Assembly: GCA_965205675.1 (NCBI GenBank)
Contig: OZ242186.1
Coordinates: forward strand, 416,001 to 480,000
DNA length: 64,000 bases
Direction: 5' to 3'
DNA from: Nitrosopumilus sp.
Lineage (GTDB): Archaea; Thermoproteota; Nitrososphaeria; Nitrososphaerales; Nitrosopumilaceae
Shown here: one piece after another, positions 3,549-3,619 of the stretch
How the letters are laid out: every line of letters begins with the position of its first letter
How positions within the stretch are numbered: the first letter of the stretch is position 1
Notes under the pieces: generated by a model
Databases searched by the model: none
Told to the model about the DNA's origin: nothing
The model's input: only the letters and a program-made list of their open reading frames with translations
Position numbers and translations under genes: made by a program

Positions 3549-3619
3549 TGGACCTGTTGGGAGTTGAACCCAAATCTCCTAGTTCTTACTTAGGTACGTG
3601 ACCGTCACGCTACAGGCCC
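3549..3619 (-). ncRNA. tRNA-like cloverleaf (non-canonical; nominal anticodon AAG)
   Basis: Acceptor GGGCCUG/CAGGUCC-A, D arm GCGU/ACGU with GG, anticodon arm CCUAA-GUAAGAA-CUAGG, 4-nt variable loop, T arm UUGGG-UUCAACU-CCCAA. Confidence 0.75.

Follow-up and report, generated by a model that had tools for sequence, protein, structure and literature searches.

A tRNA-Ala-derived tRNA-like gene with a candidate antisense RNA partner on an integrated element of Nitrosopumilus

We describe a transfer RNA (tRNA)-like gene, T, and a putative antisense partner, M, near one end of an integrated element of Nitrosopumilus sp. (GenBank assembly GCA_965205675.1), within the 64,000-nt stretch of contig OZ242186.1 from 416,001 to 480,000 (forward strand), hereafter the window, whose own numbering is used. 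The genome, a single contig of 2.01 Mb with about 33% GC, carries an archaeal small-subunit ribosomal RNA. Comparative analysis indicates that T descends from tRNA-Ala and is a genuine gene for a tRNA-like RNA, maintained by selection; T and M together appear to form a two-gene RNA cassette with an antisense-pair mechanism, a reading that we favor with moderate confidence. Antisense pairs on mobile DNA are of a known kind, yet a tRNA-like target is unusual. The part of the literature covered here contains no description of an archaeal mobile element that carries a tRNA-like gene together with an antisense partner, and the supplementary attachment-site (att) tables of one survey (PMC6563490) might list this element. 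The locus is composed of three parts:

3548..3619, minus strand: T, tRNA-like gene derived from tRNA-Ala, nominal anticodon AAG; 72 nt with C74, delimited by ARAGORN, Rfam, folding and family covariation.
3620..3654, no strand assigned: 35-nt spacer between T and M with two conserved AT-rich blocks, putatively promoters.
3655..3697, plus strand: M, putative antisense small RNA of about 42 nt, with an antisense segment, a hairpin and a T6 run.

A default ARAGORN run predicts a single tRNA in the 64-kb window, at 3548-3619 on the minus strand, and calls it Leu(aag). The Rfam tRNA model RF00005, the kind of score check proposed in a first-pass annotation of this DNA, matches 3549-3619 (minus strand) at full length (model positions 1-71 of 71) with 47.6 bits (E = 4.5e-7 for the window), against a gathering cut-off of 29 bits. 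Weak sub-threshold Rfam matches are also found to mascRNA (21.9 bits, gathering 42.5) and to the Tymo tRNA-like structure (TLS; 19.2 bits, gathering 40). The minimum-free-energy fold of T is a cloverleaf of -27.7 kcal/mol (z -3.5 over 200 shuffles). Its 7-bp acceptor stem carries G3.U70 and A73; the D stem (GCGU/ACGU) encloses the loop GACGGUC, giving G14, C21 and G18G19; the anticodon arm (CCUAA, loop GUAAGAA, CUAGG) contains G32, U33, the anticodon AAG, A37 and an A31.C39 mismatch; the variable loop has 4 nt, and the T arm (UUGGG, loop UUCAACU, CCCAA) is canonical. Every detail of the cloverleaf that the first-pass annotation had listed, namely G14/C21, G32, A31-C39, AAG and the short variable loop, is found on this strand. 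The annotation had also extended the acceptor helix by 2 bp (GU/AC): the flanks, GU at -2 and -1 and A73C74, do permit such an extension, but since GT also stands at -2/-1 of about 10 of the 42 ARAGORN-predicted tRNAs in the genome (hand count), it may only reflect a transcription start context. A T5 run directly follows T, as in independent host tRNA genes.

The pair G3:U70 and A73, neither of which had been remarked upon before, make up what we take to be the identity set of alanyl-tRNA synthetase (AlaRS), marking an alanine and not a leucine tRNA. AlaRS does not read the anticodon. T carries both features and lacks an alanine anticodon (NGC). We also considered whether T mimics host tRNA arms, and discarded the idea, as the arms of host Leu(GAG) and Phe(GAA) are by eye unlike that of T.

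A family covariance model was built from seven members and run on 151 genomes of the genus, where it separates a high-scoring class of 72-73 nt from canonical tRNAs. Inspection leaves the T family in at least 15 of these 151 genomes; its distribution is patchy, and some genomes hold several copies with different arms (seven T in genome G169, six in G154). The best canonical match of the model in the genus genomes listed is a tRNA-Ala, at 57.8 bits (for example Ala(tgc), positions 307577-307651 of the present genome, G000). An order-wide run, likewise on 151 genomes, returned one true T member in a sister genus, and Ala anticodons were found in 22 of the 23 best-scoring matches examined outside the genus. 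BLAST searches with the T locus against 60 relatives matched 5/36 same-genus and 0/24 other-genus genomes, and a pattern scan of metagenomes recovered four T members, two of them with the same sequence, among 14 matches, the other ten being chance matches on high-GC contigs.

The seven-member alignment shows 93.9% of cells paired and double changes in 12 of 21 pairs, spread across all four stems; none of 500 shuffles reaches the observed covariation score, and sliding the partners lowers pairing to 35-47%. The structural conservation among homologs whose absence the first-pass annotation would have taken for decay is hence present. Among 37 non-redundant family members, the set for all position counts below, G1-C72 and G2-C71 are invariant (37/37 each), G3.U70 occurs in 36 and A73 in 35, while acceptor pairs 5-7 vary with compensation. 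No member (0/37) has an alanine anticodon. A37 is kept in 36, position 33 is U in 26 and C in 11, and position 32 is G in 10. The anticodons are GAA (12), AAG (8), GUC (8), GAG (2), GAU (2), CAG (2) and AUC (1) in 35 members; two 73-nt members are misregistered in the anticodon call and by eye read GAA (L054) and GAG (L089). Positions 14 and 21 fall into two clean alternating states, A/A in 19 and G/C in 16 (mixed in 2), and within the G14/C21 subfamily the two bases probably pair with each other.

Neither the 3-kb loci, which reach about 1.5 kb to either side of T, nor 28 larger loci, which reach about 7 kb, revealed a conserved protein neighbor; larger recurrent protein clusters keep no fixed distance from T, those sampled being transposases, and the loci are rich in insertion sequences (IS). 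Searches elsewhere were equally negative within their scope. Public annotated collections gave only two 35-nt matches to a Lactobacillus prophage (E 5e-3) under "phages" and none under "plasmids". In IMG/VR, two loose 14-base patterns returned, among the matches listed, only unrelated DNA or unrelated tRNAs; a specific M-type pattern returned three unrelated coding matches and no T by the model; and a type-B hairpin pattern (type B is defined below) returned none. A 14-base D-arm pattern run on genome contigs gave 0/120 T-like loci among the matches listed.

The feature that sets T apart is its partner, an anticodon-arm copy that the first-pass annotation had passed over. M positions 3655-3670 are a perfect 16-nt complement of T positions 26-41, 35 nt upstream of T; read on the T strand, the same site is a same-sense copy ("H") of the T anticodon arm. 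In the window, a hairpin at about 3667-3689 and a T6 run at 3691-3696 follow, and when 3655-3697 is folded, the 12 nt at its 5' end stay unpaired ahead of the hairpin (-7.7 kcal/mol, z -1.4). A copy of the member's own arm scoring at least 20 accompanies 36 of 38 family members, nearly all at fixed spacing; of the other two, one has a weak partner and one, at a locus broken by insertion sequences, has none. Two arrangements occur: type A partners lie upstream, same-sense, and end 30-39 nt before T (79 nt in the exceptional L053), whereas type B partners lie downstream, antisense, and start 33-42 nt after T; at L090 the copy is downstream yet same-sense. Because the type A copy, read on the opposite strand, has type B anatomy, almost every T is accompanied by a candidate M gene. 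All four metagenomic T members have a perfect 16-mer partner. By comparison, arm copies are absent from canonical Ala(CGC) controls (0/3, scores 12-16), and neither the 22 other-genus matches with Ala anticodons nor the ten chance metagenome matches have a partner (scores of at most 18 in both).

Across the family, M is a candidate RNA of about 40-52 nt made up of an antisense arm, a hairpin and a T-run; in 28 of 33 loci the last is at least 5 nt long and stands 18-29 nt past the antisense segment. Type B hairpins fold with -8 to -9.6 kcal/mol and z near -4. The plus strand at M can also be read as a mini open reading frame (ORF), AUG-UUA-GUU-CUU-ACU-UAG (3652-3669), whose fourth codon is cognate to the T anticodon; because an in-frame equivalent is confined to 10 of the 23 type-A partners that were scored (24 in all), we treat it as probably incidental.

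Duplex predictions indicate that the pairing is private. Cognate T-M duplexes average -25.9 kcal/mol and non-cognate ones -12.5 kcal/mol; at 28 of 33 loci no other M equals the cognate, and at the remaining five a relative's M ties with or beats it. An adjacent complementary partner that co-varies with its target across homologs, as in an antisense pair, is present here, with more than 20 distinct arm sequences among the co-varying T/M pairs. Among the tRNAs of the genome, T is the sole strong target of M (-23.5 kcal/mol); with the next-best duplex at merely -14.4 kcal/mol, M was rejected as a regulator of host tRNAs. Of 489 facing T/M positions, 473 are Watson-Crick pairs, 14 are G.U, none is A.C and two are other combinations. 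Along with the private specificity and the spacer blocks described next, the ratio of 14 G.U to 0 A.C favors pairing at the RNA level, since DNA identity or gene conversion would yield both transition classes equally.

The spacer has conserved blocks at promoter distance. Its T-adjacent block (plus strand, 3620-3637; -13 to -1 of T, type A) is purine-rich and then TATA-like, about 25 nt before M. On the minus strand, ATTATTAG (3645-3652) occupies -33 to -26 of T, a distance at which type A spacers show a weaker ATTATTA block and at which, similarly, TATA-like boxes of host tRNA genes stand. We infer that the two blocks may be archaeal promoters for M and T.

From sequence we further infer transcription of T and M, alanylation of T, their pairing in vivo and a biological role, along the following lines. 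The T transcript would take up a tRNA fold, and its G3:U70/A73 would make alanylation probable. The single-stranded 5' end of M would nucleate on the T anticodon loop and invade the stem, so that M would cover the loop and the 5' stem strand (positions 26-41) and mask or unfold the arm. As each cassette has its own arm sequence, T-M pairs would be private. Because the only evident job of M is to neutralize the decoding arm of T, free T may be harmful or tightly dosed.

Whether the cassette goes further and acts as an RNA-only addiction or exclusion module, with T as the active, dose-sensitive component and M as the antidote, is a tentative proposal; it is the role that we prefer, although we regard it as more likely to fail than to hold. 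The evidence for it is circumstantial: the family is patchy and multi-copy, and orphan M sites and broken T copies occur. Doubtful, too, is the specific version in which the toxin is a mis-wired tRNA, with an Ala-accepting body, Phe/Leu/Ile/Asp anticodons and a private antisense small RNA as its check. Free T would then put Ala at Phe, Leu, Ile or Asp codons, and stable T would be released to poison translation whenever the element was lost or a relative with a different arm came in.

Several observations weigh against these proposals or against the antisense pair itself. C33 and G32, in 11 and 10 of the 37 members, should weaken decoding, which speaks against T as a toxin. The 14:0 bias could stem from non-template-strand deamination of two transcribed genes; even so, that account still needs transcription on the M strand. 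A conserved TTTAATTA box after type-B T also follows a host tRNA-Val, and may be only T's own terminator. The M hairpin of the window subfamily is weak, at -2.1 kcal/mol after the antisense segment (the -7.7 kcal/mol given above, z -1.4, applies if the two overlap), and a clean T-run is absent in 5 of 33 M modules. Finally, a fusion at C1:1273.7 kb and a 38-nt duplication at C1:541 kb (both described below; C1 is the contig of the present genome) look like products of DNA recombination.

The element that carries T and M is about 10.2 kb long (about 3200-13436) and is bounded by a 12-bp repeat, AGAATTTATATT. Its features other than T and M are:

3188..3199, plus strand: attL copy of the 12-bp core AGAATTTATATT.
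3389..3451, minus strand: hairpin "N", long and conserved, between T and the element end (-28.1 kcal/mol, z -2.7).
3472..3513, minus strand: type B module relic, with an antisense segment (3502-3513), a hairpin (3479-3501) and a T7 run (3472-3478).
3712..5484, minus strand: TraG/VirD4-like coupling ATPase, the last gene before M and T (Pfam TrwB_AAD_bind, TraG-D_C and T4SS-DNA_transf).
12310..13377, minus strand: tyrosine integrase of the element (Pfam PF00589, E 3.2e-8; PHROG integrase).
13425..13436, plus strand: attR copy of the 12-bp core AGAATTTATATT.

The element has on its left a pterin-4a-carbinolamine dehydratase gene (2877-3155), and a 6-pyruvoyl-tetrahydropterin synthase gene (13461-14276) lies to the right of the integrase. 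In 11/11 loci of relatives the site is empty and these two pterin-pathway genes are direct neighbors; homology of the relatives to the window ends at 3199 and restarts at 13425, and the flanks overlap by 12 nt, which is AGAATTTATATT. The empty sites, the homology breaks and the 12-nt overlap argue that the window holds a 10.2-kb element in an intergenic target. Cores this short and targets between genes are usual among thaumarchaeal elements, whose att cores have a median of 17 bp and a minimum of 8 bp and of whose targets 15/68 are intergenic (PMC6563490). T lies 350 nt inside attL. Its anticodon-arm 16-mer occurs in the window only at 3580-3595 and 3655-3670, with no other arm copy of at least 12 nt, so that attR has no copy of the T arm. 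The first-pass annotation, which had T element-borne, some 350 bp inside attL, without a partner at attR and not the integration target, is borne out on each of these points.

Among the element's proteins, only the integrase has homologs near other T loci (3 loci), and a 697-aa protein has no match in Pfam, PHROG or PDB. The element further contains a repeat of about 120-130 nt (6737-6866), resembling a miniature inverted-repeat transposable element, with about 20 further copies in the genome at 81-87% identity; a 137-nt unit in two tandem copies (7555-7848; 96% identical, 157-nt period); and a perfect 26-nt palindrome, ACCTTAGTGCAAATTTGCACTAAGGT, at 3343-3368 between hairpin N and attL. Hairpin N recurs at the T paralog (C1:540.9 kb, 82% identity) and after T in two other genomes (L045 and L077); its internal loops (CCUUCC / UGGUCAU) are conserved, and one copy in another genome has an apical insertion.

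Elsewhere in this genome are a T paralog (C1:541136-541207, anticodon loop UUGAAAC) and four partial relatives. The paralog also has its own arm copy upstream, differing from window T in the loop sequence, and the genome as a whole holds six M-like sites and only one intact T. In C1:541136-541279 (L001 10137-10280, minus strand) the paralog is interrupted, with positions 1-43, a 35-nt insert and then positions 6-73; the resulting 38-nt duplication (positions 6-43) looks like an insertion scar. Truncated T copies lie at C1:358.9 kb and C1:1817.0 kb, and in a junction-like relic at C1:1273727-1273826 an M-type left half runs straight into the 3' half of a T. The type B relic at 3472-3513 is complementary to a GUC-type arm and not to the window T arm, and the same relic stands at the C1:541-kb paralog. 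The window copy is a hybrid that, on the simplest reading, arose by recombination of two T genes within their conserved 3' halves.

Four other explanations of T were weighed against the antisense cassette. One assigns T a role in cis or in processing, as an RNase P/Z signal, as an RNA stabilizer (for the M relic and hairpin N) or as a component of a control region, which would stand about 400 nt upstream of attP and int once the element is excised as a circle. M would then tune replication, copy number or integrase expression in the manner of ColE1 or R1. The first-pass annotation had put forward the RNase P/Z signal and, besides it, a nuclease decoy and a guide or primer scaffold, all of them conjectural roles. 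T, the M relic and hairpin N do occupy the last 430 nt of the element, pointing to attL and hence to int once circular; at four loci a conserved hairpin N adjoins T, and the diversity of arms with private partners resembles incompatibility determinants. However, most T-M cassettes elsewhere are not near an integrase or a recognizable replication gene, conservation of G3:U70/A73 and an antisense RNA devoted to the anticodon arm would both be superfluous in a processing signal, and the T5 run at once after T resembles that of the host's independent tRNA genes. We consider this explanation improbable.

A second explanation operates at the DNA level, with the arm copies as att cores, T as a portable landing pad for integrases, and the H/M copies as scars of integration or accretion. 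Integrases classically cross over in the anticodon loops of tRNA genes (Williams 2002, cited in PMC6563490), the context is mobile DNA, and the junction-like sequence, the truncated T copies and the paralog's 38-nt duplication flanking a 35-nt insert are what such events might leave behind. Nevertheless, the element's own att core is an unrelated 12-mer at an intergenic site, and T does not behave as an attachment site, which would show the same core at both ends and once in empty sites. The partner keeps a nearly constant 30-42 nt from T (36/38 loci), far too near to flank an element, and a hairpin and a T-run follow the arm copy; a requirement for DNA identity does not predict 14 G.U against 0 A.C; and of 20 T loci compared in five genomes, just 2 have a Pfam-detectable tyrosine integrase within 10 kb. 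This explanation is, in our judgment, distinctly improbable.

T as an ordinary decoding tRNA that supplements the reading of CUU (Leu) is very improbable, as the first-pass annotation had concluded. In its favor are the ARAGORN call of tRNA-Leu(AAG), U33, A37, the canonical T loop and G18G19. Yet its 4-nt variable loop gives T a class I shape, and the Leu tRNAs of the host (tag, taa, gag and caa) are class II molecules of 86-102 nt with long arms; T has an Ala-type acceptor (G3:U70/A73), and G32 in place of the pyrimidine at 32; the host already has a Leu(GAG) isoacceptor, which serves CUY; and the family places Phe, Leu, Ile and Asp anticodons on one Ala-type body, with C33 in 11/37. Finally, a decaying pseudo-tRNA or chance cloverleaf, suggested by the non-canonical G14, C21 and G32, the A31.C39 mismatch and the disrupted C1:541-kb paralog, is scarcely credible, because compensatory changes run through all four stems with 0/500 shuffles as good, G14/C21 is a cleanly alternating, covarying alternative to A14/A21 in 16 members, and intact T copies persist in many genomes and in metagenomes.

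The proposed antisense cassette has several known counterparts, the nearest in its presumed way of working being plasmid antisense control and type I toxin-antitoxin pairs. Antisense/target RNA pairs are carried by mobile elements, as in ColE1 RNA I-RNA II, R1 CopA-CopT and type I toxin-antitoxin systems of the hok/sok type. Like these, T-M would join a target to a short RNA encoded beside it, one that has a single-stranded seed and ends in a hairpin; recognition would begin at a loop, and the loop sequence would set private specificity groups. In contrast, the target is a whole tRNA-like molecule and not an mRNA leader or a replication primer, and T-M has no toxin ORF or rep gene, resides in an archaeal host and is known here from sequence. 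RNA-only toxin-antitoxin pairs include CreT-CreA of haloarchaea, in which CreT sequesters a rare tRNA, and SdsR-RyeA. Here too two RNAs form a cassette on variable DNA and tRNA biology is central, whereas T-M has no Cas genes or crRNA-like repeat and itself encodes a tRNA-like RNA, which is the antisense target. Transfer-messenger RNA (tmRNA), whose alanylation also relies on G3:U70, the TLS of turnip yellow mosaic virus (TYMV) and mascRNA share with T a tRNA mimicry beyond standard decoding, but T has all four arms of the cloverleaf and scores above the cut-off of the tRNA model, whereas its Rfam scores for the TYMV-type TLS and mascRNA fall far below gathering. Natural human tRNA-Ala anticodon variants are reported to mistranslate (PMC12084884); they too join an Ala-identity body (G3:U70) to a non-Ala anticodon, yet they are point variants of host genes, whereas T belongs to a diversified mobile-DNA family with a dedicated antisense and often non-canonical loops. 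tRNA att sites, as presented in Williams 2002 (cited in PMC6563490), resemble T in having a tRNA shape at an element edge and short arm repeats, whereas here the att core is another 12-mer in an intergenic site and T is internal and complete.

Other repeats and tRNA-like genes were observed in the window and the genome. A 129-nt direct repeat (28801-28929 and 39986-40114; 97% identical, 11.2 kb apart) possibly marks the ends of another inserted element. An rve-type integrase ORF lies at 23735-24457 and an IS110-family transposase ORF at 24674-25621; the DNA of the transposase ORF recurs at 75% identity 1349 nt farther along (26035-26334), under a 219-aa ORF (26023-26682). In its intron mode, ARAGORN predicts a 157-nt intron-containing tRNA at 18847-19003 (plus strand), with a good acceptor and T arm, that is missed by both its default mode and Rfam at the gathering threshold. 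Another unusual tRNA-like family comprises three related class II-like genes of 83-89 nt called Phe(GAA) (C1:1261574-1261656, 1794331-1794418 and 1858414-1858502), additional to the canonical 75-nt tRNA-Phe.

If the antisense cassette is real, it would put the tRNA fold to a novel use on mobile DNA, as an anticodon-swapped tRNA-Ala derivative under the control of its own antisense RNA, and archaeal mobile elements would gain an RNA-RNA specificity system like plasmid antisense control or type I toxin-antitoxin systems. The co-varying arm/partner pairs, with more than 20 arms, are ready-made natural compensatory mutants. Annotation pipelines will call T genes tRNA-Leu, tRNA-Phe or tRNA-Asp, inflating and distorting the tRNA sets of these archaea.
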